NCBI GenBank assembly: GCA_964646435.1
Contig: CAZYEJ010000002.1
Span: forward strand, 14,897 to 78,896
Reading direction: 5' to 3'
DNA: 64,000 nucleotides
Source: an uncultured Thermodesulfobacteriaceae bacterium
GTDB taxonomy: Bacteria; Desulfobacterota; Dissulfuribacteria; Dissulfuribacterales; UBA3076
Shown: positions 388 through 63,985 of the stretch, piece by piece
Layout of the letters: every line of letters begins with the position of its first letter
How positions within the stretch are numbered: the first letter of the stretch is position 1
Program-made: the position numbers and the translations under genes
Notes under the pieces: model-generated
What the model was told of the DNA's origin: nothing
Seen by the model: the letters and a program-made list of their open reading frames with translations, nothing else
Databases searched by the model: none

Positions 388-482
388 ATGGAATTGTTTT
401 GAAAGATAAACGTCGAGCATCGAACGTCCAACGTCGAATGAAAAACGAATATCCAATACCGAATATTCAACAGCTATTTCTG
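388..482. repeat. Partial copy of dispersed repeat family A (core 'catcgaacgtccaacgtcgaatg')
   Basis: Hand alignment to the reverse complement of 48110-48212 is near-identical: 'ggaattgttttgaaagataaacgtcga.catcgaacgtccaacgtcga.tgaaaaac.aatatcc'. Confidence 0.7.
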
Positions 483-579
483 TTTCTTCTCAGCCGTTTT
501 GTTCAATCGAATCGGCCAAATTTAACCCAAATCTAAGCACAATATTGTCCAACTTATTTGCGGACAATTCCTTAATGTT

Positions 580-9849: not shown

Positions 9850-10575
9850 GTGTACGCCCGGCATAGGCGTGAACTTATGAGGTTAAAGTCCTCTGTACGT
9901 GAACCTTGCTGCCTGATTTTGAGGTTAGCAAAAGTACTAGCCGAAGGCAAGGGCGTCGCTGTGAGGCGGGGTTCGAAGGAAGCCGGAGTACAAAGCTGTG
10001 AGCCGACGAATAGAAATGTCATATAAGGCCGAGTCTCTGGGCAAGGGTCTTGAAAAAAATAAATTGGTGGAATTCGCGTCCAGATTTGCCATAGATTTAG
10101 TCGATCTGATTGAACAAAACCGCAGGCATAACAGTGTTATGTTGAGGATTTTGCGATTGAGGATCGATTAAAGATGTGGTGAAGATGGGATGCGAAAATG
10201 CCAAATTATTTTTTCCCAGGCCCTAAGGCAGCACAACATGTCTAAGCCCTGGATTCACAGGAGATACGGTAAATGGCGCGGATTGTTCACGTTCTTATCC
10301 AGGGAGACCTGTTTTCCATGCGGCATAATGTTGTTTCCAGTGAAACTACCGGCAGGGGCTACCGGTTCCCAAATGTCCCGGCACAGATGATGGAAAACTC
10401 TGCCTCATTTGTGAGATACGAAACAAAGATGAGCAGACAGGAAATGAATAGTGCAGCGTCATGCGAAGTAATTCGTGTGGTGTGAAAGCAGGAGTCAGCA
10501 GAGGCCATAGTAGCCCAACGCCGGGGGTAATGCCACGGACATGGTGAAGGGCCGAACATCAAGGAGAAAAAGAGG
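9850..10575 (+). mobile_element. 5' portion (domains I to about III/IV) of a group II intron, class C-like; no reverse-transcriptase ORF and no domain V/VI
   Basis: It starts 'GTGTACGCCCGGCATAGGCGTG' and contains 'TTCGAAGGAAGCCGGAGTACAAAGC', 'TCATATAAGGCCGAG' and 'GTGAAAGCAGGAGTCAGCAGAGGCCATAGTAGCCC'. From memory, these parallel the Oceanobacillus iheyensis IIC intron. A hairpin at 9814-9829 lies just upstream. The end coordinate is approximate. Confidence 0.55.
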
Positions 10576-11707: not shown

Positions 11708-11777
11708 GATGAACAGCTATCAGCTTTTAGGTATTAGTAACTTATTTGGAAAACAGCAGCAAATTAACCGCTAACAG

Positions 11778-13235
11778 CTAATCGCTTAATTCAGTTTCAG
11801 ATAGTACTTTGTCCTGGTCTTTTCCTGTGGACAACACCTTGCAGATTATAGCACCCTTTTCAGGTCTTATCAGGAGACGTTCACCTTCTGCCACCTGATC
11901 AAATCGCTTTACAAGTTTCCCCCCGGATGTCCGATAAACCAGACTGTAGCCCCTGGCAAGGACTGCAAGCGGGCTCACTGCGTTTAGCTTTCCGGACAAC
12001 GTGGCAAGGGATTGGCGTTTTCTCTCAATAGAGACCGATCCGGCCCGGACCAAACGCCTTGACAGAGAGCAGGATTCGGCTTTGGCCAGGGCAAGCTGTT
12101 TTCCCGGTTCGTGTACCACGAGCCTTTCACGCAGGTTCAGGTATCCATGGGACCAGAAACCAATTTTTTCTTGCATGATCCTCAACAGCCTGGCATTAAG
12201 GTCGTCCTGTCGAAGTCTCTGCTCCACAAGTTTTCTTCTGGGATCCTTGAGTTGATGACGGAGTAATTGAACCGCCTGCTGATTGATTTTTAACCTGTTG
12301 TAAATTGAAAGGATAATTCTCCTGGTGAGGATTGCTACCTTGTCCATCAGCTCTTCCCTGCGGGGAAAAAGGAGCTGTGCCGCTGCAGTGGGGGTGGCGG
12401 CCCTGTGATCTGCCACAAAGTCTGAAATCGTGAAATCGACCTCATGGCCTACTGCCGAGACAACAGGTATGGTACAACTGAAAATCTCCCGGGCCAGGGT
12501 CTCATCGTTGAATGCCCGGAGATCCTCAAGCGAGCCACCTCCTCGAGTGAGCAGTATAACATCACCTTTCTCAGCAACATGTTGGGCAATTCTCAGAGAA
12601 TCAATTATTTCTCCTGAGGCCCCTTCTCCCTGAACACTTGCCGGGCAGAGTACGATGTTTGCCCCTGGATAGCGTCCCTTGGCATTCCGGATAAAGTCAT
12701 GGATTGCAGCGCCGGTTGGGGATGTGATAACAAAGACCCTTTGCGGAAGCAGTAGAAGCGGCAGCTTATGCTCAGGAGAAAAAAGGCCCTCTTTTTCCAG
12801 GCGTGCCTTTAGCTGTTCAAAGGCCAGTTGAAGAGCCCCCTCTCCCTTTGGTTCAACGGTTTCCGCCACCAACTGGAGATCGCCCCTGCCGGTATAGATA
12901 TTGAGCCTCCCGAAACAGATCACGTACTGGCCGTCCTCCAGCTCAAAAGGGAGGCGGGCAGCCTGGGACTTGAACAGCACGGCCTTGATCTGGGACCGAT
13001 TATCCTTCAAGGTGAAATAGCAATGGCCTGATGAAGGCTGTCGTAAATTTGATATCTCTCCTTCCACCCACAGGATATCAAAATCGAGGTCCAATCTGTC
13101 CTGGACCTTGGCTAAAAGATCCGAGACCTGCCAGACATGTCTGACAGAAGGAGGAGATTCCCGATTAATGTCGGGAGAGATAACACCTTCCAGGGCGGAA
13201 GGGGGAAACAGATTTTTGAGGGAATCTTCTATCAT
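11778..13235 (-). CDS. xseA: Exodeoxyribonuclease VII large subunit
   Basis: 485 aa with an OB-fold N-terminus ('VEGEISNLRQPSSGHCYFTLKD'), the catalytic core and a long coiled C-terminus. Confidence 0.9.
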   Translation of the reverse strand: MIEDSLKNLFPPSALEGVISPDINRESPPSVRHVWQVSDLLAKVQDRLDLDFDILWVEGEISNLRQPSSGHCYFTLKDNRSQIKAVLFKSQAARLPFELEDGQYVICFGRLNIYTGRGDLQLVAETVEPKGEGALQLAFEQLKARLEKEGLFSPEHKLPLLLLPQRVFVITSPTGAAIHDFIRNAKGRYPGANIVLCPASVQGEGASGEIIDSLRIAQHVAEKGDVILLTRGGGSLEDLRAFNDETLAREIFSCTIPVVSAVGHEVDFTISDFVADHRAATPTAAAQLLFPRREELMDKVAILTRRIILSIYNRLKINQQAVQLLRHQLKDPRRKLVEQRLRQDDLNARLLRIMQEKIGFWSHGYLNLRERLVVHEPGKQLALAKAESCSLSRRLVRAGSVSIERKRQSLATLSGKLNAVSPLAVLARGYSLVYRTSGGKLVKRFDQVAEGERLLIRPEKGAIICKVLSTGKDQDKVLSETELSD

Positions 13236-14270: not shown

Positions 14271-14322
14271 AACCTAAATTGAGCGATTAGCTGTCAGCCA
14301 TTAGCGTTTAGCTTTGAAAAAG
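14271..14322 (-). repeat. Fragment (right-end inverted repeat) of repeat family B
   Basis: 'cctaaattgagcgattagctgtcagccattagcgtttagctttgaaaa' is the reverse complement of the right end of 15627-15816. Confidence 0.7.
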
Positions 14323-14780: not shown

Positions 14781-14856
14781 TTTACCGTGAAAATACTTTT
14801 TGAATTAGCCACCCCAGTACCATCTACCGGAGCTACAGGGCAGGCAGACCCACACG
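14781..14856 (-). repeat. Dispersed repeat family D copy
   Basis: Its reverse complement 'ttcgtgtgggtctgcctgccctgtagctccggtagatggtactggggtggctaattcaaaaagtattttcacggtaaa' is nearly identical to 63795-63868. Confidence 0.8.
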
Positions 14857-15020
14857 AATACACAGACAATTCATCTGCTGGTGTGTTCACCAATGTGGAT
14901 AAGGTCTTTTGTCTGTGTTCGTCTGTGTGTGTCGAGCGAGCATAGCGAGCGGGTGGCAAATTTTCATGCTCGGGGGTGACGAAAGGCCTCATCATAAACG
15001 TTTAGTTTGGTAAATATCAT

Positions 15021-15632: not shown

Positions 15633-15816
15633 CTATTAGCTGTAATGATACAGGATGTTTTAACTATTACAAACTTTTACCTTGTTGAACGCAGCTTTGC
15701 TGCCCCCTTTGGGGATTCAACAGGGTGAACCCATTGGGTGTTATTTCTGATTAACGTAATGCCCTATTTTTTCAAAGCTAAACGCTAATGGCGAACAGCT
15801 AATCGCTCAATTTAGG
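15627..15816 (+). repeat. Repeat family B copy 1 (MITE-like, about 190 bp) filling the tsaC-mltG spacer
   Basis: It aligns to 18974-19160: 'ggatgttttaactattacaaa..ttttacc', 'ttgggtgttatttctgattaacgtaatgccc' and 'atttttcaaagctaaacgctaatggc.aacagc.aatcgct'. It carries an extra internal hairpin insert, 'ccttgttgaa...ttcaacaggg'. Confidence 0.8.
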
Positions 15817-18973: not shown

Positions 18974-19160
18974 TTAATTTGAGCGATTAACCTTTAGCGG
19001 TTAGCGGTTAGTTTAATGATTATCGGTCTGCCGCCCTGACAAGTAGGATGTTTTACTATTACAAATTTTTACCCATTTGGTGTTATTTCTAATTAACGTA
19101 ATGCCCGGATTTTTCAAAGCTAAACGCTAATGGCTAACAGCGAATCGCTTAACTTAACGG
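18974..19160 (+). repeat. Repeat family B copy 2 (MITE-like, both inverted ends present) filling the ftsL-ftsI spacer
   Basis: The left end 'ttaatttgagcgattaacctttagcggttagcggttag' and the right end 'ctaaacgctaatggctaacagcgaatcgcttaacttaa' are inverted relative to each other. The core matches 15627-15816. Confidence 0.8.
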
Positions 19161-26569: not shown

Positions 26570-27796
26570 GTGAACTTAATTATGAGTCACGAAATATATA
26601 AACACAAAACAATCACCAAATCACCAAACCACCAAATCACCAGATTAGTGGTGGCTGGTGGTGGCACAGGCGGACACGTGTTCCCCGGAATTGCCGTAGT
26701 TGAGGCCATGGAGTCCCATGGCCGTATAGATGTTATGTGGATAGGCACAGGCCGCCCGGTGGAAAAAAATGCACTTTCAGGACGTAAATGGGATTACCGA
26801 ATTCTCAACACAAGGCCTCTCAGGGGCTCAGGCATTGCAGCAACCATGCGTTCTCTGGCTGGACTTCCTTTCTCCACGATCAGGGCTTGTTCGTGGCTTA
26901 AATCATTCAGGCCTCATGTGGTACTGGGTGTTGGGGGATATGTCTCCGGACCTGCACTTCTTGCAGCGCGAATGTTGCGGATACCTGCCGCCCTCCATGA
27001 GCAGAACCTTATCCCAGGGCTCACAAATCGTTTGGCCTCCAGATTCGCAAAGACAGTGTTTGTGAGTTTTAAAGAAACTGCTAAATACTTTCCCAAAAAC
27101 AGGGTAATTTTTACTGGAAATCCCATACGGAAAAATATTATTCAATCACTCAATCACCAAATCACCAAATCACCAAATCACTCAATCACCAAATCATTCA
27201 ATCTTCTGGTCCTGGGAGGCAGTCAGGGTGCCAGATGCCTGAACAGGCTTGCCGGTTCGGCCATACAGGTTTTGTGGCAATCCGGTTTTCATTTGAAAAT
27301 TATTCACCAAACAGGCAAGCTGGATGAGTCACATGTTGAGAAATTTTATAAGGATGCAAGCATTCCGGCCAAAGTGACCCCATTTATCTCTAACATTGGT
27401 GAATCCTATTCCTGGGCAGACTTGGTTATCTGCCGGGCCGGAGCAGGTACTCTGTCTGAGCTCACAACCTTGGGGAAACCATCGATCCTCATTCCCTATC
27501 CCTGGGCAACGGACAGCCATCAGGATGCCAACGCCAGAGAATTGACTGAAGCCGGGGCTGCCAAATACTTCCTGGAAGAAGAAATCGGTGCTATAAAACT
27601 GGCGGGAGAGATACAGTCTTTGCTGGAGGATCCCCAGCAACTCATCAATATGGGAAAAAATGCTCAAAAACTTGGAAAACCCACGGCAGCTACAGAGATA
27701 GCCTCTACACTGATAGAGATAGCCGGACATACTTTTCCATATTCTGAAACAGAAACTAATTCATTGAAAGGTTCTACAGTACGTAACCATGTATAA
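26570..27796 (+). CDS. murG: Undecaprenyldiphospho-muramoylpentapeptide beta-N-acetylglucosaminyltransferase
   Basis: 408 aa with 'GGGTGGHVFPGIAV', 'VLGGSQGA' and 'RAGAGTLSELT'. The exact start is uncertain (26570 GTG or 26582 ATG). Confidence 0.9.
   Translation: MNLIMSHEIYKHKTITKSPNHQITRLVVAGGGTGGHVFPGIAVVEAMESHGRIDVMWIGTGRPVEKNALSGRKWDYRILNTRPLRGSGIAATMRSLAGLPFSTIRACSWLKSFRPHVVLGVGGYVSGPALLAARMLRIPAALHEQNLIPGLTNRLASRFAKTVFVSFKETAKYFPKNRVIFTGNPIRKNIIQSLNHQITKSPNHSITKSFNLLVLGGSQGARCLNRLAGSAIQVLWQSGFHLKIIHQTGKLDESHVEKFYKDASIPAKVTPFISNIGESYSWADLVICRAGAGTLSELTTLGKPSILIPYPWATDSHQDANARELTEAGAAKYFLEEEIGAIKLAGEIQSLLEDPQQLINMGKNAQKLGKPTAATEIASTLIEIAGHTFPYSETETNSLKGSTVRNHV
26609..26643 (+). repeat. 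Tandem octamer array (AAATCACC x about 4) in the murG 5' coding region
   Basis: 'caatcacc aaatcacc aaaccacc aaatcacc ag' translates to 'ITKSPNHQIT', immediately before the GGGTGGH motif. Confidence 0.85.
27142..27210 (+). repeat. Tandem octamer array ([AC]AATCAC[CT] x about 8) in the murG interdomain linker
   Basis: 'caatcact caatcacc aaatcacc aaatcacc aaatcact caatcacc aaatcatt caatctt' translates to 'QSLNHQITKSPNHSITKSFN', between 'GNPIRKN' and 'LLVLGGSQGA'. Confidence 0.85.
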
Positions 27797-30075: not shown

Positions 30076-30917
30076 AAGTCAGAAGGCCGTCTTCAGAATT
30101 TAGGTCTTCAGTACGTAGCTCCGGCTCGCGGAATAAGTCTGCTAAACCGATGTTTTCAGTATCGTGGCTTATCAATTCTAAAATATTGGTTGGCATAGCC
30201 GTAACGTGCATTGTGCTTGTAGGATTTTTTATGTGTCGGCATTGGGCATGTCAATCTGATCTTTTCAGGGTTTGTCAGGTTCTGGTGAAAGGCTGCGATC
30301 GCGTCACGGAAGAGGAGGTTTTGCAACTGAGCAATGTGACCGCCCAGGACAATCTTTTATCTCTCGATCTGAAATCAATTGCAGCGTCCATAGAGGCGCA
30401 TCCCTGGGTCCATACGGTTAAAGTTAAAAAAAAATTGCCGGATCATCTAATGATTACGATCAAAGAACGTACTCCGGTAGCCCTGTTGAATTCTGACAAA
30501 ATGTATTTGATTGATAAACAAGGTAAAATTATCGATGAACTTTCAACAAAAGACCCAGTCTCTCTTCCCATCATTACCGGGTTTGATCCTAAAAACATAA
30601 AAAATAATCAAATCACCAAATCACCAAATCACCAAATCCAAAAAGTCCTGGAATTAATATCCATGGCAAGCAAAGGCACAAGAACTCTGGGTGTAAACAA
30701 TATTAGCCAAATAGACGCAGCTAAAAAAGATACACTAATACTCTATACATCTGACAGCGGTATTCCTTTTTACTTTGATACTAAAAATCTCAGCACCCAG
30801 TTCAGTGAGGCGGAAAAAATCCTGTATCAACTCTATCGCTCAGGAACATATAAAAAAGTTGCTAAGGTTGATTTGGATTACGGCCCCGGCCAGGCCCTGG
30901 TCAGTCTGAAACATTAG
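30057..30917 (+). CDS. ftsQ: Cell division protein FtsQ (POTRA-containing)
   Basis: 286 aa with a basic N-terminus, one TM, a POTRA-like 'VCQVLVKGCDRVTEEEVL..' and 'HPWVHTVKVKKKLPDHLMITIKER'. It sits in the dcw position. Confidence 0.8.
   Translation: MGYGNMKVRRPSSEFRSSVRSSGSRNKSAKPMFSVSWLINSKILVGIAVTCIVLVGFFMCRHWACQSDLFRVCQVLVKGCDRVTEEEVLQLSNVTAQDNLLSLDLKSIAASIEAHPWVHTVKVKKKLPDHLMITIKERTPVALLNSDKMYLIDKQGKIIDELSTKDPVSLPIITGFDPKNIKNNQITKSPNHQIQKVLELISMASKGTRTLGVNNISQIDAAKKDTLILYTSDSGIPFYFDTKNLSTQFSEAEKILYQLYRSGTYKKVAKVDLDYGPGQALVSLKH
30604..30640 (+). repeat. Tandem octamer array (AAATCACC x about 4) inside ftsQ
   Basis: 'ataatc aaatcacc aaatcacc aaatcacc aaatcca' translates to 'NNQITKSPNHQIQ'. 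Confidence 0.85.
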
Positions 30918-35135: not shown

Positions 35136-35297
35136 GTAACAGTTCATGGGGTTACAACGCCCGTTTTACTGCAAGCCACCGAATTGTAAGCGTTTACAGG
35201 GTGCTGCAGATGCGAGGCGGAGAGTACGCAGACGTACTTCCTGTACTTCAAGTGCCCGACAACAAAGCAGATGCAATGCCCTGTAAACGCTTACTAT
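35136..35297 (+). repeat. Repeat family C copy 1 (about 160 bp, with a 16-bp terminal stem)
   Basis: It aligns to 41718-41880. 'gtaagcgtttacaggg' (35186-35201) pairs with 'ccctgtaaacgcttac' (35279-35294). There is an inner hairpin, 'agtacg-caga-cgtact'. Confidence 0.8.
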
Positions 35298-35301
35298 TTC
35301 A

Positions 35302-41717: not shown

Positions 41718-41880
41718 TATAACCGTTCACGGAATTGCAACGCCCGTCTTACCGCACCCGCCGAACTATAAGCGTTTACAGGGTGCTGCAGATGCGAGGC
41801 GGAGGGTACGCAGACGTACTCCCTGTACTTCAAGTGCCCGACAACAAAGCAGATGCGGTGCCCTGTGAACGCTTAGCTTA
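41718..41880 (+). repeat. Repeat family C copy 2
   Basis: It has the same 107-nt core as 35189-35295, with about five substitutions by my alignment. The flanks are more diverged. Confidence 0.8.
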
Positions 41881-45389: not shown

Positions 45390-47975
45390 ATGCAACTTGA
45401 AAAATTCACAATGAAATCACAAGAGGCCCTGCAAGGGGCACAGAGCTTGGCCCAAAGCAAAGGGCATCAGCAAATCGAGCCCGAACATCTGCTTAAGACA
45501 CTGCTGAGCCAACCTAAGGGAATTGTAGCATCGGTCCTGAAAAAAATGGGGGTTGAAATCCAGGCCATTGAAGCCGAAGTAGATGAAGCTGTAAACAATC
45601 TTCCCCAGGTGAGCGGAGCGGGTCTGCAGGTCTATATGTCGTCCACGCTAAATCAGATACTGGAAAAGGCATTCGCCATTGCGGATAAAATGAAGGATGA
45701 GTATGTCAGCCAGGAACACCTACTTCTGGCCATCCTCGACGCATCCCATACAAAGGCCGGTCAGGCGTTGACAGGTCATGGAGTCAACAAGGATACCTTC
45801 CTGCAGGCCCTGGTATCCATAAGGGGTAGCCAGAGGATAACCGATCCTAACCCTGAGGAAAAGTATCAAGCACTTGAAAAATATGGAAGAGACCTCACCT
45901 CTTTTGCAAGATCAGGGAAGCTGGACCCGGTAATAGGTCGTGACGATGAAATTCGCAGGATCATGCAGGTACTGTCTAGAAGGACCAAGAATAACCCAGT
46001 CCTCATAGGTGAACCAGGGGTTGGTAAGACTGCGATAGTAGAGGGTCTGGCCCAACGAATAGTCTCCGGCGATATTCCTGAGACACTGAGGGACCGGCGC
46101 ATTATTGCCCTGGATATGGGGGCCTTGATCGCAGGGGCCAAGTTCCGGGGTGAATTTGAAGAACGGCTGAAGGCAGTCCTCAAGGAAGTAGCAGAACGGC
46201 AGGGCGAGGTCATCTTGTTCATAGACGAAATCCACACCATGGTGGGCGCCGGAGCGGCCCAGGGATCCATGGATGCCTCGAATATGCTGAAACCTGCCCT
46301 TGCCAGGGGAGAGCTCCACTGCATCGGTGCCACCACAATAGACGAATACCGCAAGTACATTGAAAAGGATACTGCGCTCGAAAGACGCTTTCAGCCAGTG
46401 ATGGTGAATGAGTCCAGTGTTGAGGACACCATTGCCATACTCCGCGGGCTAAAAGAAAAATACGAGGTGCACCACGGAGTACGGATAAAGGATTCATCTA
46501 TAATTGCAGCATCAACGCTGTCTCAGCGCTACATCACGGATCGCTTTCTCCCGGACAAGGCCATTGATCTTATAGACGAGTCGGCAGCAAAGCTGAGAAT
46601 CGAAATAGATAGCCTTCCAGCGGACATTGACGAATTAGAGCGCCGGAGCATGCAGCTTGAGATAGAACAAGAGGCCCTGAAAAAGGAAACTGATCCGGCA
46701 TCCATAGAAAGATTAGAGAAAATCAAACAGGATCTTGCCGACCTCAGAGAGCAGAGCGATTTGCTCAAGGCCCGCTGGCAGCAAGAAAAGGGAATTATTC
46801 AAAAAATCCGTGATATCAAGGAACGTATAGACCAGCTCAGGATCGACGCAGAAAGATTCCAGCGTGAGGGTGACCTGAACAAAGTGGCTGAGATCCTCTA
46901 CGGAGAGGTCCCAAAACTTGAAAAGGAGCTGAAAGAGGAACAGTCCCGGATAAAAAAGCTTCAGAAGGATGGCACCAGTATGCTCAAAGAGGAGGTGGAC
47001 GCTGACGACATTGCGGACATCATATCCAAGTGGACAGGAATACCGGTCAGCAAACTTCTTGAGGGAGAAAAGGAAAAGCTGGTCCACATGGAAAATCGCC
47101 TGAGCCAACGGATTATTGGCCAGGAAAAGGCCATACAGGCGGTATCAAATGCAGTCCGCAGGGCCAGGGCCGGTCTGCAGGACCGTGCGCGGCCTATTGG
47201 TTCCTTTATTTTTCTCGGACCCACAGGTGTTGGAAAAACAGAGCTGGCCAGGACCCTGGCTGAATTCATGTTCGATACTGAGCAGGCCATAATTCGTATG
47301 GACATGAGCGAATACATGGAAAGACACTCCGTCGCCAGGTTAATCGGTGCGCCTCCGGGCTATGTGGGATATGAAGAAGGGGGCTATCTCACAGAGGCCG
47401 TGCGGCGCAAACCCTATTCTGTTATTCTTTTTGACGAAATAGAAAAGGCCCATCCGGACGTATTTAACATACTGCTCCAGATCCTGGACGATGGAAGGCT
47501 TACTGACGGCAAGGGTCGTACTGTGAACTTCCGCAACACCATAATTATCATGACTTCCAACATAGGTACTGACCTGATTCAGGAAATCAAGGACCCGGAG
47601 GAGATAGAGCACAGGATGATGGACGCCCTTCGTCTCAGCTTCAAACCCGAGTTCCTAAACCGTGTGGACGACGTGATCATTTTTCACTCACTCAGCAAGG
47701 AACACCTGCAAAGTATTGTAGACATCCAGCTCAGCTATCTCAAGGACCGTCTGCAGGAGCATAATTACGAAATTGACGTAAGCAAAAGGGCAAAGGCATG
47801 GATAGCTGACGTAGGTTATGATCTTACATACGGGGCACGTCCTCTTAAGAGGGCCATTCAGCGCTACATTGAGAATCCTCTGGCCCTTAAAATCCTTGAG
47901 GGGACCTTCAAAGAGGGAGACGATATCCTGATAGAAATGGACGAAAATGGCCATGTGTCATTCCGAAAAAAATAA
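45390..47975 (+). CDS. clpB: ATP-dependent chaperone ClpB
   Basis: 861 aa with two AAA+ modules ('[15 protein letters not shown]' and '[15 protein letters not shown]') and a long middle coiled coil. Confidence 0.97.
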
Positions 47976-48014
47976 GGGTCAGGGGTTATAAGTGCTAAGT
48001 TATTTTTTCATCGG

Positions 48015-48210
48015 ATGGACTAATGAACATCGAACGTCCAACATCGAATGCTGAATGGGGGAAAATGAAGAAACGGACTTATGGCTGGAAGAAAGGCTGC
48101 TTGAGTATACAGAAATAGCCGTTGAATGTTGGGTATCGGATATTTGTTTTTCACTCGACGTTGGACGTTCGATGTTCGACGTTTATCTTTCAAAATAATT
48201 CCATACGGCA
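48015..48210 (-). repeat. Repeat family A full copy: an about 157-bp inverted-repeat element nested in a shorter repeat
   Basis: The terminal inverted repeats are 'catcgaacgtccaacatcga' (48028-48047) and 'tcgacgttggacgttcgatg' (48155-48174). The flanks 'atggactaatgaacat' and 'ctttcaaaataattccatacggca' occur contiguously, in inverse orientation, at 54588-54628. Confidence 0.75.
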
Positions 48211-48416
48211 TAGATATAACACATGTGAACGCCCACAGAAAAAAGATCTGCAGAATTTTTGCTTTTGGATTAGTGCAAAAACGTTCGTTTCTGTTATAGT
48301 GGCCTTGATTTGTTGAATAACAATTTAAACGGCCTTGTCTTTCTCCGGCCAATGTGCGATTATTTGTAGCAATACCCCAATTCATAGATAAAAAACTTGG
48401 GAAAGGATGATGAATT

Positions 48417-53583: not shown

Positions 53584-54567
53584 GTGCTTAAGGTAATATC
53601 TACTACACTATTTTTCATATTTGTCTTTGCCTTTGTTTCAGAAAACTTTATTGATATTGCGGACGCAAGGGCCAGGGGCGGCGGCCGGTCCTTTGGCGGA
53701 AGCCGGTCATATTCCAGGCCCATGAAGACCAGTCCGACCAAACAGACCACAGCCCCCACATCCAGAACAAGCTCGACCCAAAGAGGCTCCAGCAGTTTTA
53801 TGCGAGGTCTCGGCGGAGGCCTGCTTGGAGGTTTTCTCGGCAGCATGCTCTTTGGCGGCATGGGCCACGCCATGGGGGGTGGTGTTGGCGGGAGCGGAAT
53901 CGGCCTTTTTGAAATCATACTGATTGGCGGTCTGCTATACTTCCTGTACAGACATTTTACTCGCAAAAAATCTTCCTCAATGTTTCACAGTACTCCAGGA
54001 TCATTCGGATCTGGCGGGGCTCATGCCCGCCACACACCCCCTGTTCCTCCGCCTACAAGCCGTCATGGAGGGCCTATGCCAGGGGGCTCGCCGGCCGGAA
54101 TAGATGCACCGCCACCTGACACTGTATCAGATGCTCTCAACATGATACGGATGTCAGACCGAAGCTTTGACGAGGAAAAATTCAAGGAGTTTGCTCAAGA
54201 CGTATTCTTCAAGGTGCAGGCCGGCTGGATGCGCCGTGATATCTCCACGATAGAACACCTTTTGGGGCCTGAGTTATCAGCAGAGTATATGAAACATTTT
54301 CAGGAGATGAAACAGAAAGGCCAGATTAACCGGCTGGAAAACATTGCAGTTAGAAAAGTGGAAATAGAGGATGCCGGTGTCGGCAAAAGCGAAGAATACC
54401 TTACCGTCTTCTTTACTGCCAATCTCCTCGACTATACTGTGGATGAATCCACAGACACGGTGATTGAAGGCAGCCAGACCGAGCCGGTCAAGTTTGCCGA
54501 AAAGTGGACTTTTGCACGCCCGGTTGGCAGTTTAGACTGGAAACTGATCGGCATTGTTCAAATGTAA
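53584..54567 (+). CDS. Tim44-like domain membrane protein with a Gly-rich region
   Basis: GTG start at 53584, after 'ggaggag'. It has a signal/TM 'VISTTLFFIFVFAF', Gly-rich low complexity, a second TM, and a C-terminal domain resembling bacterial Tim44-like proteins. Confidence 0.6.
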   Translation: MLKVISTTLFFIFVFAFVSENFIDIADARARGGGRSFGGSRSYSRPMKTSPTKQTTAPTSRTSSTQRGSSSFMRGLGGGLLGGFLGSMLFGGMGHAMGGGVGGSGIGLFEIILIGGLLYFLYRHFTRKKSSSMFHSTPGSFGSGGAHARHTPPVPPPTSRHGGPMPGGSPAGIDAPPPDTVSDALNMIRMSDRSFDEEKFKEFAQDVFFKVQAGWMRRDISTIEHLLGPELSAEYMKHFQEMKQKGQINRLENIAVRKVEIEDAGVGKSEEYLTVFFTANLLDYTVDESTDTVIEGSQTEPVKFAEKWTFARPVGSLDWKLIGIVQM

Positions 54568-54587
54568 GGGTTCACAGATTACATTTA

Positions 54588-54628
54588 TGCCGTATGGAAT
54601 TGTTTTGAAAGATGTTCATTAGTCCATT
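54588..54628 (+). repeat. Repeat family A 'empty' version (the flanks joined without the inverted-repeat element)
   Basis: 'gccgtatggaattgttttgaaagat|gttcattagtccatt' equals the two flanks of the 48-kb copy joined directly. Confidence 0.7.
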
Positions 54629-55292
54629 ACATTTCGGTTACTATTTTTTCGAGGACATCTTCCACGGTCAAATCGGAGGAGTCAATTACAATACAATCAG
54701 GGGCGGCCTGCAAAGGCGCGATGGACCGAGTTGAATCCGCCAGATCCCTGGCCTCAATTTGGGCCAGTATCTCTTCATATGCCACCTCCTCTCCCTGGTC
54801 CTCCATTTGCATCTTCCGTCGTCTGGCTCGCTCCCTTGCAGAGGCGGAAAGAAAAAATTTATGAACAGCTTTGGGGAAAACAACTGTGCCCATATCCCTG
54901 CCCTCTGCCACCAATCGACCCTGTCCGCCAAGCTCCCTCTGCATTCCGGTCAAATATTCCCTCACCACGGCAACCCTGGAAACCGCAGAAGAAAGCCCGT
55001 CCATTTCCGGTGTGCGAATAAGGGACGAGACATCCTCTCCGTTCACCAGGATATGGTCTCCCTGGAATCCCAGCTTCAGATCATTACATAGCTCTGCAAG
55101 GGCCTTTTCGTCTCCTGCATCCATGCCTTTTTGCCTGGCAGCCCATGCCACTGCCCTATACATGGCACCTGTGTCGAGATATGTGTATCCCAGACGCCTT
55201 GCCAGCTCTTTACTGACAGTGCTCTTGCCGGCGCCAGCCGGTCCATCAATGGTAATAATATTCAAACAGTCCATAAGAAATGAACTACCCAT
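54627..55292 (-). CDS. cmk: Cytidylate kinase
   Basis: 'ITIDGPAGAGKST' and 'YLDTGAMYRA'. The start may be the second ATG, at 55274. Confidence 0.9.
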   Translation of the reverse strand: MGSSFLMDCLNIITIDGPAGAGKSTVSKELARRLGYTYLDTGAMYRAVAWAARQKGMDAGDEKALAELCNDLKLGFQGDHILVNGEDVSSLIRTPEMDGLSSAVSRVAVVREYLTGMQRELGGQGRLVAEGRDMGTVVFPKAVHKFFLSASARERARRRKMQMEDQGEEVAYEEILAQIEARDLADSTRSIAPLQAAPDCIVIDSSDLTVEDVLEKIVTEM

Positions 55293-63759: not shown

Positions 63760-63794
63760 TCAAATAAAGAATGCGGATAACTTGTCAGTGTTCG

Positions 63795-63868
63795 TGTGGG
63801 TCTGCTTGCCCTGTAGCTCCAGTAGATGGTACTTGGGGTGGCTAATTCAAAAAGTATTTTCACGGTAA
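63795..63868 (+). repeat. Dispersed repeat family D copy
   Basis: 'gtgtgggtctgcttgccctgtagctccagtagatggtacttggggtggctaattcaaaaagtattttcacggtaaa' matches the reverse complement of 14781-14856. Confidence 0.8.
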
Positions 63869-63872
63869 AAAA

Positions 63873-63910: not shown

Positions 63911-63985
63911 TGGCTCCCCGAGACGGACTCGAACCGCCAACCTAGTGGTTAACAGCCACCCGCTCTGCCATTGAGCTACCGGGGA
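63911..63985 (-). tRNA. tRNA-Asn (anticodon GTT)
   Basis: The reverse complement is 'TCCCCGGTAGCTCAATGGCAGAGCGGGTGGCTGTTAACCACTAGGTTGGCGGTTCGAGTCCGTCTCGGGGAGCCA'. The anticodon loop is CTGTTAA. The T arm is ggcgg-ttcgagt-ccgtc. Confidence 0.9.

Follow-up and report, generated by a model that had tools for sequence, protein, structure and literature searches.

The 64,000-nucleotide stretch of an uncultured Thermodesulfobacteriaceae genome analyzed here (contig CAZYEJ010000002.1; hereafter the window, at its full length) holds three related copies of a palindromic repeat. Locus A (47987-48237) lies 3' of clpB, locus B (54563-54626) between cmk and a Tim44-domain gene, and locus C (388-501) between two protein genes; A and B each sit between convergent genes. 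An earlier sequence-only reading of this DNA had described A and B as the filled and the empty site of one small mobile element. The comparisons set out below instead make it probable that locus A is a degenerate nested composite, in which the remnant of a gene cassette lies inside a miniature transposon (MITE, a miniature transposable element with inverted repeats). They also suggest, with comparable assurance, that the copy at 54.6 kb is the same composite after collapse of its hairpin rather than an unoccupied target. Locus C is a one-sided fragment. The parts of the three loci are as follows.

Locus A
47987..48007, + strand: left terminal inverted repeat (TIR) of the outer MITE, TATAAGTGCTAAGTTATTTTT (consensus CATAAGCGCTAAGTTRTTTT); the partner right TIR is missing here
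48008..48022, + strand: left-hand inner stretch of the outer MITE (X), TCATCGGATGGACTA; other copies have a fuller form, GGATGGACTGTGGAAGGTTTACTGAAAAAA, longer by about 20 nt
48023..48050, + strand: the inner cassette's left arm, a run of tandem heptads, A TGAACAT CGAACGT CCAACAT CGAATG
48031..48186, + strand: the 156-bp segment previously called the inserted element; the part of the palindrome missing from the putatively collapsed 54.6-kb copy
48065..48118, + strand: remnant of a four-helix-bundle open reading frame (ORF), ATGAAGAAACGGACTTATGGCTGGAAGAAAGGCTGCTTGAGTAT, resembling MKKQTYDLEERLLEY with a 1-nt frameshift (one base missing), fused to ACAGAAATAG (..QK*)
48119..48151, + strand: conserved spacer from the stop codon to the right arm, CCGTTGAATGTTGGGTATCGGATATTTGTTTTT
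48152..48186, + strand: right arm of the cassette, CACTCGACGTTGGACGTTCGATGTTCGACGTTTAT, one heptad longer than the left arm
48187..48237, + strand: terminal CTTT of the cassette, then Y, the right-hand inner stretch of the outer MITE, CTTTCAAAATAATTCCATACGGCATAGATATAACACATGTGAACGCCCACA

Locus B
54563..54611, - strand: Y of the putatively collapsed copy, CTTTCAAAACAATTCCATACGGCATAAATGTAATCTGTGAACCCTTACA; the Tim44-domain gene's stop codon (54565-54567) overlaps the end of this Y
54612..54619, - strand: residual outermost left-arm heptad, ATGAACAT; junction type T1 (see below)
54620..54626, - strand: X remnant TGGACTA, abutting the cmk stop codon; the outer left TIR is absent

Locus C
388..501, - strand: truncated third copy, with right arm, spacer, ORF end, and part of Y
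474-501, - strand: last 8 ORF codons (KTAEKKQK*)
441-473, - strand: spacer
406-440, - strand: right arm
388-405, - strand: first 18 nt of Y

The sequences that the sequence-only reading had quoted were found at their positions, and the arrangement that it had noticed, with flanks split at 48 kb but joined and inverted at 54.6 kb, lies far beyond chance at the junction (54594-54627). The left-hand sequence ATGGACTAATGAACAT has two exact occurrences in the window, at 48015-48030 (+) and 54612-54627 (-), against a shuffle expectation of 0.01; the right-hand CTTTCAAAAYAATTCCAT has three, at 48187-48204 (+), 54594-54611 (-), and 388-405 (-), against an expectation of 0.00. Likeness of the right flank runs on to ~48237 and 54563 (81% over 53 nt, E 1e-7), and the end of Y at locus A is where the sequence common to insertion-free relatives (GAAAAAAGATCTGC) resumes. 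The segment between the flanks exists at 48031-48186, albeit with a length of 156 bp and not 157. Its breakpoints fall within the arms, at an ATC microhomology (48029-48031 and 48185-48187), and what had been taken for a 2-nt AT duplication is a junction ambiguity of 3 nt, ATC. The inverted repeat is also real (48025-48050 against 48152-48177, 26 nt, 92% complementary), but it begins 6 to 8 nt outside the left boundary that had been drawn for the element, so that ATGAACAT, the first 8 nt of the left arm, is arm sequence excluded by that boundary. The third locus, described as a left half, proved to be the right half in reverse orientation (96 nt, 92%), together with the first 18 nt of the right flank.

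The identity of the inner unit emerged from its relatives. We scanned one genome per species with a 17-mer pattern of the arm core, for which we calculate ~140 chance matches in the 596 Gb covered, and validated the matches by extension beyond the seed and by pairing of the arms. The scan yielded at least 118 loci, mostly in metagenome-assembled genomes (MAGs) of Desulfobacterota, with some in PVC-group and other phyla. Among the matches listed, an inverted partner no more than 1.2 kb away was found for 67 loci, whose arm-to-arm distances form a continuous spread from 28 to 561 nt. The aligned copies share the consensus AAAGATGAACATCGAACATCGAACGTCCAACATCGAAYG ... CAGAAATAGCCGTTGAATGTTCGGTATTGGATATTCGTTTTTCATTCGACGTTGGACGTTCGATGTTCGAYGTTCATCTTT, and their arms are tandem heptads with a period of 7 (CGAACAT/CGAACGT). 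At three loci (L103, L105, and L039), full-length relatives from other MAGs of Desulfobacterota, an intact ORF of 121 to 124 amino acids lies between the arms. The intact proteins of L103 and L105 match PF05635, "23S rRNA-intervening sequence protein" (E 7e-16, 58.8 bits, cut-off 33.8), and TIGR02436, "four helix bundle protein" (E 2e-25, 88.8 bits, cut-off 24).

Locus A can be aligned with these intact relatives at the arms, the initial codons, and the stop; of the gene it keeps ~15 N-terminal codons plus the stop, a frameshifted remnant of ~18 codons in all, and tblastn with two intact proteins found no intact cassette gene in the window. The ORF-deletion junction of A recurs at the orthologous site in L125 and in L014, and other copies keep other pieces of the ORF (amino acids 77-119, 92-124, 94-122, 2-28 plus 103-119, 3-24, and 2-16). 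Because the retained pieces differ in this way and the arm distances are continuous, the alignments cast the 156-bp unit as one stage in the decay of a gene cassette and not as a discrete, transposase-derived MITE.

The ends of this cassette lie outside the ends that had been assigned to the element. The left-arm start ATGAACATCGAAC is kept among copies with unrelated flanks, as are the cassette ends AAAGATGAAC...GTTCATCTTT whatever lies beside them. ATGAACAT and CTTT travel with the cassette even outside the outer MITE (L105, L103, L046, L089, L014, and L053), so the ATGAACAT and CTTT present at locus B are cassette bases. These findings bear directly on the model in which a 156-bp non-autonomous MITE with ~20-bp TIRs transposed into an older repeat, duplicated AT, and left its target visible at 54.6 kb. 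Flanks that are exactly joined at 54.6 kb, an AT (or ATC) before both junctions, and a family of many copies are what such a model would expect. The arms, however, overrun the proposed ends by 8 nt on the left and 4 nt on the right of the filled and "empty" breakpoints, and the AT is inherent in both arm ends (left TGAACAT, right GTTCAT/GTTTAT), with no need of a target-site duplication (TSD). Cassettes that lie outside the outer MITE (L105, L103, L046, and L089) have no direct repeat at their ends, and the full-length relative encodes the four-helix-bundle protein and no transposase. With the short-form junctions and the element-free sites described next, these data leave the model very unlikely.

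A truly empty site should lack cassette bases; in the copy at 54.6 kb, both the outermost heptad of the arm, ATGAACAT, and the CTTT terminus are still present. We gathered short forms of this kind from the metagenome scan, ~15 family members in all, and they fall into four junction types. T1, ATGAACAT|CTTT, occurs at six loci (L130, L139, L148, L149, L158, and window B), and T2, ATGAACATCGAACAT|CTTT, at seven (L132, L135, L137, L141, L143, L145, and L150). T3, ATGAACATCGA|CGTTCATCTTT, is seen in L136 and uses a TCGA microhomology, while in T4 (L138) the right end is duplicated. A left-arm heptad (GAACATC) and the right end GTTCATCTTT have CATC in common in exactly two registers, and these are T1 and T2. 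T3 and T4 retain right-arm bases and are therefore not unoccupied targets, which the transposition model would require of its short forms. To judge from their breakpoints, all four junctions would fit collapse of the palindrome at CATC or TCGA microhomology. Internal deletion derivatives with variable breakpoints are the very outcome that the sequence-only reading had named as incompatible with a precise empty site.

Sites that really lack the element were found in close relatives. We retrieved orthologous loci through Cmk homologues; the cmk-to-clpB synteny is conserved in these relatives, and their DNA is ~93% identical to the window. Site B is bare in L120, L121, and L125, with an intergenic gap of 15 bp and no X or Y sequence, which again disagrees with a target embedded in an older repeat. 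It is filled in L126/L127 (UBA3076), where 336 bp comprise the outer left TIR, X, cassette arms that have an inverted copy nested within them, and a Y of reduced length; it holds other simple-repeat modules in L122 and L124 and the collapsed form in the window. Site A measures 16 bp in L120/L121 against ~250 bp in the window; L125 has a cassette there with the window's ORF-deletion junction, and L126 a collapsed form of type T2, flanked by the same X and Y. Since the site is filled in two of three deep lineages, the most economical history, judged on these alignments, would be one ancestral filled composite followed by collapse in L126. The mobility that the sequence-only reading had proposed is borne out to the extent that presence and absence differ at orthologous sites of close relatives, which shows turnover; its nested architecture, an inner inverted-repeat unit within another repeat, and its widespread multicopy family are likewise upheld.

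The order of events could also be reversed. Here the short MITE, with one or two central heptads, would be the propagating form, re-filled by gene conversion or homologous recombination, and locus A could be a re-filled copy of the B type. Collapsed MITEs with perfect 11-bp TSDs do lie at unrelated loci, so the short form itself transposes. Left arms occur in tandem arrays (six in L005, three in L103), nested inverted arm copies such as that at site B of L126 suggest that arms attract further copies, and alleles at site B appear to have been replaced between strains that are 99.8% identical. Even so, the central heptads of the MITE must still stem from the cassette, and ancestral filling with the same ORF deletion in two of three deep lineages at site A, followed by collapse in L126, takes fewer events. 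We therefore regard re-filling as unlikely.

The signature of transposition that had been sought at the inner unit, TIRs with a TSD, belongs to the outer element. Its X and Y flanks recur beside the cassette in other MAGs and reach outward to an outer inverted repeat, with TIRs CATAAGCGCTAAGTTRTTTT / AAAAYAACTTAGCGCTTATG in 16 complete copies (core of the TIR pair, CATAAGCGCTAAGTT ... AACTTAGCGCTTATG). The element is 118 to 142 bp long in collapsed form and 222 to 389 bp where cassette remains persist. Perfect 11-bp target duplications lie directly outside the TIRs in 5 of the 16 complete elements (L135, L137, L138, L158, and L002), and each differs in sequence: GTCCAAGAGGT, CCCCTTACTCC, CCCTTAATACC, GGGCCAATCCT, and AGGTGATATAG. 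At least five further outer elements, in L130 (two copies), L150, L139, and L115, have 11-bp duplications with one or two mismatches. Small and non-coding, the collapsed outer elements are present on many metagenome contigs, where the sequences beside them differ. By three criteria, then, the outer element is a MITE: it has TIRs, a TSD of fixed length, and many unrelated insertion sites. An origin of the IS200/IS605 type (palindrome-associated transposable element, PATE) was considered and rejected in view of the long TIRs and of the 11-bp TSD on the outer element. Elsewhere in the window another 118-nt hairpin repeat is present in two copies (35176-35298 and 41758-41875, 93% identical), and its 27- to 32-nt inverted ends (TGTAAGCGTTTACAGGGTGCTGCAGATGC...) resemble the Y-flank motif TGTGAACGTTTACA.

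Several points weigh against the reading of A and B as a cassette-bearing MITE and its collapsed counterpart. The window copies of the outer MITE are truncated, A retaining only its left TIR (47987-48007) and B neither TIR nor a TSD; because the right outer TIR and any TSD are missing, the arrival of the window copies at A and B is not directly demonstrated. The sequence-only reading had proposed a search for an autonomous, transposase-encoding element with the same TIRs, and neither such an element nor a transposase with the outer TIR was found among 1.22 Mb of related DNA, viral contigs, and plasmids. Only one pair of TIRs 0.5 to 4 kb apart was found in the related DNA, and it was spurious; the viral contigs gave 0 matches to the outer TIR, and blastn of the composite against the plasmids gave no match. 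The recurrence of T1 and T2 at many loci could also be explained by precise enzymatic excision or by one founder short form. Furthermore, L120 and L124, with 99.8% identity across 5.8 kb, are set apart at site B by a 149-bp indel (a simple-repeat module), with five substitutions within 25 bp of the junction (L120:10640-10670 against L124:7290-7460). The pattern suggests that one allele was replaced through recombination, not that a module was cleanly inserted or deleted, and recombination blurs ancestral states. The comparison sequences are mostly MAG and metagenome contigs, in which misassembly is possible at repeats, and the collapsed forms were gathered with a pattern that demands ATGAAYAT...CTTTCAAAA, to which outer MITEs lacking central arm bases are invisible.

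The mechanism that we propose for the nested composite starts from what is observed: nested palindromes, homology to intact genes, variable junctions, outer 11-bp TSDs, and orthologous sites that are bare, filled, or collapsed. The inner unit, when intact, would be a cassette of ~500 bp whose long inverted arms of tandem heptads enclose a single four-helix-bundle gene (PF05635/TIGR02436), and would be akin to the gene-carrying intervening sequences (IVSs) of some 23S rRNA genes. The outer unit would be a DDE-type MITE with the TIR CATAAGCGCTAAGTT..., an 11-bp target duplication, and the cassette at its center, its right TIR having been lost at A; an unseen DDE transposase acting in trans with 11-bp staggered cuts may have moved it, and the length of the TSD might point to an IS4/IS231-like family. 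At locus B nearly the whole palindrome would have been deleted between the (C)ATC of a left-arm heptad and the (C)ATC of the right terminus GTTCATCTTT, leaving one heptad over, and the outer TIRs would have been lost as well (54563-54626). Slipped-strand mispairing, or cleavage and repair of the hairpin, at direct repeats of 3 to 4 nt at the stem base could account for the loss. Deletion between short direct repeats at the base of a hairpin is an established behavior of long palindromes. In transcripts, the arms may form a long stem of the RNase III type, by analogy with the IVSs of rRNA (PMC4990558).

A stem of this kind raises the question of whether the host itself maintains the structure. 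The composite is predicted to fold as a single long hairpin (minimum free energy -73.9 kcal/mol, z = -4.06), and this significant stability, the position of A and B between convergent genes, and one terminator-like site in the right arm are what might be expected of hairpins selected by the host as bidirectional terminators or RNase III sites 3' of clpB and between cmk and the Tim44-domain gene. One such site is not an excess, however, given the 0.6 expected from shuffles, and a promoter scan of locus A detected no promoter-like site. The same sites in close relatives lack the structures or hold unrelated modules, the sequence contains a frameshifted gene remnant, and permissive Rfam scans of locus A (even at E <= 0.1) and of locus C (300-900) returned no match, so the element is not a described RNA family. 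Selection by the host for hairpin function is, on balance, extremely unlikely to account for these loci. The Rfam scan of the whole window at the gathering threshold detected tRNAs and one group II intron only, and no rRNA.

Comparison with known systems places the inner and the outer unit differently. ORF-bearing IVSs of 23S rRNA, as in Coxiella burnetii and Leptospira, are ~430 to 500 nt long, with a small S23p ORF and complementary borders that form a long stem, and are regarded as selfish and horizontally spread, with no known mobility enzyme (PMC4990558). The intact cassettes of L103 and L105 resemble them in size (~500 bp) and in their single small PF05635 ORF, and the window cassette does so in its complementary, stem-forming arms (26 nt, 92%). 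Unlike these IVSs, which lie in helix 9, 25, or 45, the window loci are not in 23S rRNA but beside protein genes, the arms are tandem heptads, and the unit is nested in a MITE. The inner unit is thus IVS-like by analogy but is not an IVS, since it fails the defining location in rRNA. The outer element, for its part, resembles bacterial MITEs (PMC10969869) in being small and non-coding, with TIRs of ~20 bp, a fixed 11-bp duplication, and many unrelated intergenic sites, but it differs from them in carrying a passenger cassette at its center and in that its parent insertion sequence (IS) was not found in the DNA searched. The inner 156-bp unit departs from bacterial MITEs, having neither TIRs at its ends nor a TSD nor a parent IS.

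In the Bacillus cereus group, mobile insertion cassettes (MICs) have ends of the IS231 type that flank passenger genes, with target duplications in the range of 10 to 12 bp. The composite is like them in having transposon ends without a transposase around a passenger that is not a transposase, and in a duplication length within that range. It is unlike them in that the passenger is itself a palindromic, possibly independently mobile cassette, and the likeness drawn here is one of layout and duplication length. Heptameric tandem repeats are also familiar as the short tandemly repeated repetitive (STRR) sequences of heterocystous cyanobacteria. The GGGAATC heptamer repeats of Xanthomonas often form convergent pairs (PMC4692102), and both classes share with the arrays described here tandem 7-nt units in intergenic DNA, often as two inverted arrays. 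PMC4692102 makes no link from its repeats to four-helix-bundle genes, with "S23" and "four helix" each counted 0 times in its text, and reports on STRR sequences are not known to make one; the arrays here are the arms of four-helix-bundle gene cassettes or their remnants. Avd of diversity-generating retroelements shares its four-helix-bundle superfamily with the cassette protein, and the flanked gene of L005 gives weak bAvd and DivGenRetAVD matches below the curated cut-offs (28.3 < 40; 25.4 < 80). In those retroelements a reverse transcriptase and template/variable repeats adjoin the Avd-like gene; in contrast, no such repeat pair and, in L103 and L105, no reverse transcriptase ORF was noticed beside the cassettes, where no systematic check was made. 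We found no paper linking PF05635 or four-helix-bundle genes to MITEs, STRR sequences, or heptamer arms.

The architecture extends well beyond this family. We sampled 16 four-helix-bundle genes on plasmids (L162-L177) of Cyanobacteria, Chloroflexota, Gemmatimonadota, Azospirillum, and Riemerella, and scored 15 of them (all but L177). Inverted arms exceed the maximum of 100 shuffles at 15 of 15 scored loci, though marginally in Anabaena cylindrica (11 against 10), where a wider flank window reveals 28-nt (AAGTAAA)n arms. The arms measure 11 to 44 nt, or 15 to 44 nt when the marginal case is left out, and are built of tandem units of 7 to 8 nt: (TAATTCG)n, (CAATTCG)n, (AAATCGT)n, (GGTGACA)n, (AAGGGAA)n, (GGAGGGCA)n, and (GGTTCAA)n. 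Across the plasmid genes and L103, L105, and L005, the four-helix-bundle gene lies almost always between inverted 7- to 8-nt repeat arrays of varied sequence. Several of the plasmid genes sit within defense operons, usually in the same orientation as their neighbors, between cas6 and cas4, cas10/cmr2 and cmr3, cas2 and cas1, or a helicase and an N6-methylase; these cases come from cyanobacterial and Chlorohelix plasmids (L167, L170, L173, L162, L163, and L165). One plasmid cassette gene has a short ORF on either side. That on the upstream side bears the annotation of a 77-amino-acid DNA cytosine methyltransferase, and the two ORFs are possibly the halves of one gene split by the cassette.

These observations invite a broader proposal, which we offer tentatively and with rather less than even confidence. 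A single cross-phylum class of selfish IVS-type cassettes may exist, consisting of PF05635/Avd-like genes between inverted 7- to 8-nt arrays and inserted between or within host genes (CRISPR-cas, restriction and helicase operons, and, in some lineages, 23S rRNA genes). Such cassettes would probably be transcribed by read-through and release their own mRNA by cleavage of the arm stem, would hitch-hike on MITEs, and would decay by palindrome collapse. Many orphan heptamer arrays, among them cyanobacterial STRR sequences, the Xanthomonas GGGAATC pairs, and the simple-repeat modules of the window, would then be their footprints.

The nested loci matter for three further reasons. The logic of filled versus empty sites can mislead when applied to long palindromes, in which a collapsed hairpin mimics an empty target and the symmetry of the arms supplies a pseudo-TSD. 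The origin and mobility of ORF-bearing rRNA IVSs and the role of the S23p/four-helix-bundle protein have been open questions since the 1990s (PMC4990558). Loci of the window type present an IVS-like unit outside rRNA; its copies are numerous, cover every stage of decay, and are polymorphic among strains that differ by only a few percent, so that its insertion and loss become accessible to comparative and experimental study. The heptamer-armed architecture, finally, spans five phyla, often lies within defense operons, and may explain enigmatic arrays of heptamer repeats.

The nested palindromes also create or replace neighboring stop codons, here those of clpB and cmk. Both genes end in TAA in the window (47973-47975 and 54627-54629), as against TGA and TAG in relatives, and both stop codons lie at the exact edge of element-derived sequence (47966-47986 and 54620-54629); insertions and deletions therefore appear to have remodeled the ends of the two genes. 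The Logan contig L001 (SRR8862235, 4921 bp) has an identical clpB and stops inside the element, at window position 48184, an instance of the repeat breaking assemblies of public short reads.

Among the cassette relatives, L005 (5200-5720, - strand) has its six tandem left arms upstream of a canonical PF05635 gene; they are spaced 79 to 90 nt apart, and repeats of the GGGGCAAAGG type come after each of them. Superficially the arrangement is CRISPR-like, but we rejected that reading, since its units are entire arms of a cassette and lie upstream of a four-helix-bundle gene. A tiny MITE of ~78 bp (GTAATTTCTCAATAAGCC...GGACTTATTGAGAAGTTAC) lies in the cassette spacer of L014 (- strand, ~60-140) and L015 with an 8-bp duplication, GTTGAATG, and uninterrupted copies give a clean filled-versus-empty pair.

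Other simple repeats in the window recall the arms. Arrays of the 8-mer AATCACCA lie at 26591-26646, 27124-27203, and 30591-30646, all on one strand, and in L089 such an array adjoins the motif CCTGTGAACGTTTACA. The ORF between two of the arrays (26769-27065) was examined as a candidate four-helix-bundle gene and rejected, having no Pfam match. A module ending in heptads (TTTTTCAAAGCTAAACGCTAATGGCGAACAGCTAATCGCT) occurs in four copies in both orientations (11765-11797, 14271-14321, 15729-15816, and 19071-19157); these may be solo arms of another cassette type, and the genes between them are ordinary (Sua5/YrdC and a metallo-beta-lactamase fold). The group II intron domains detected with Rfam lie within 9955-10552 (RF02001 at 9955-10102 and RF01998 at 10457-10552), and 10057-10123 shows weak inverted similarity (67 nt, 70%) to 493-559, directly beside the truncated copy C. 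An inverted repeat of 86 nt joins 14781-14861 to 63788-63869, 49 kb apart and 92 to 100% identical in two blocks, and its second copy adjoins a tRNA gene (63914-63985, - strand).

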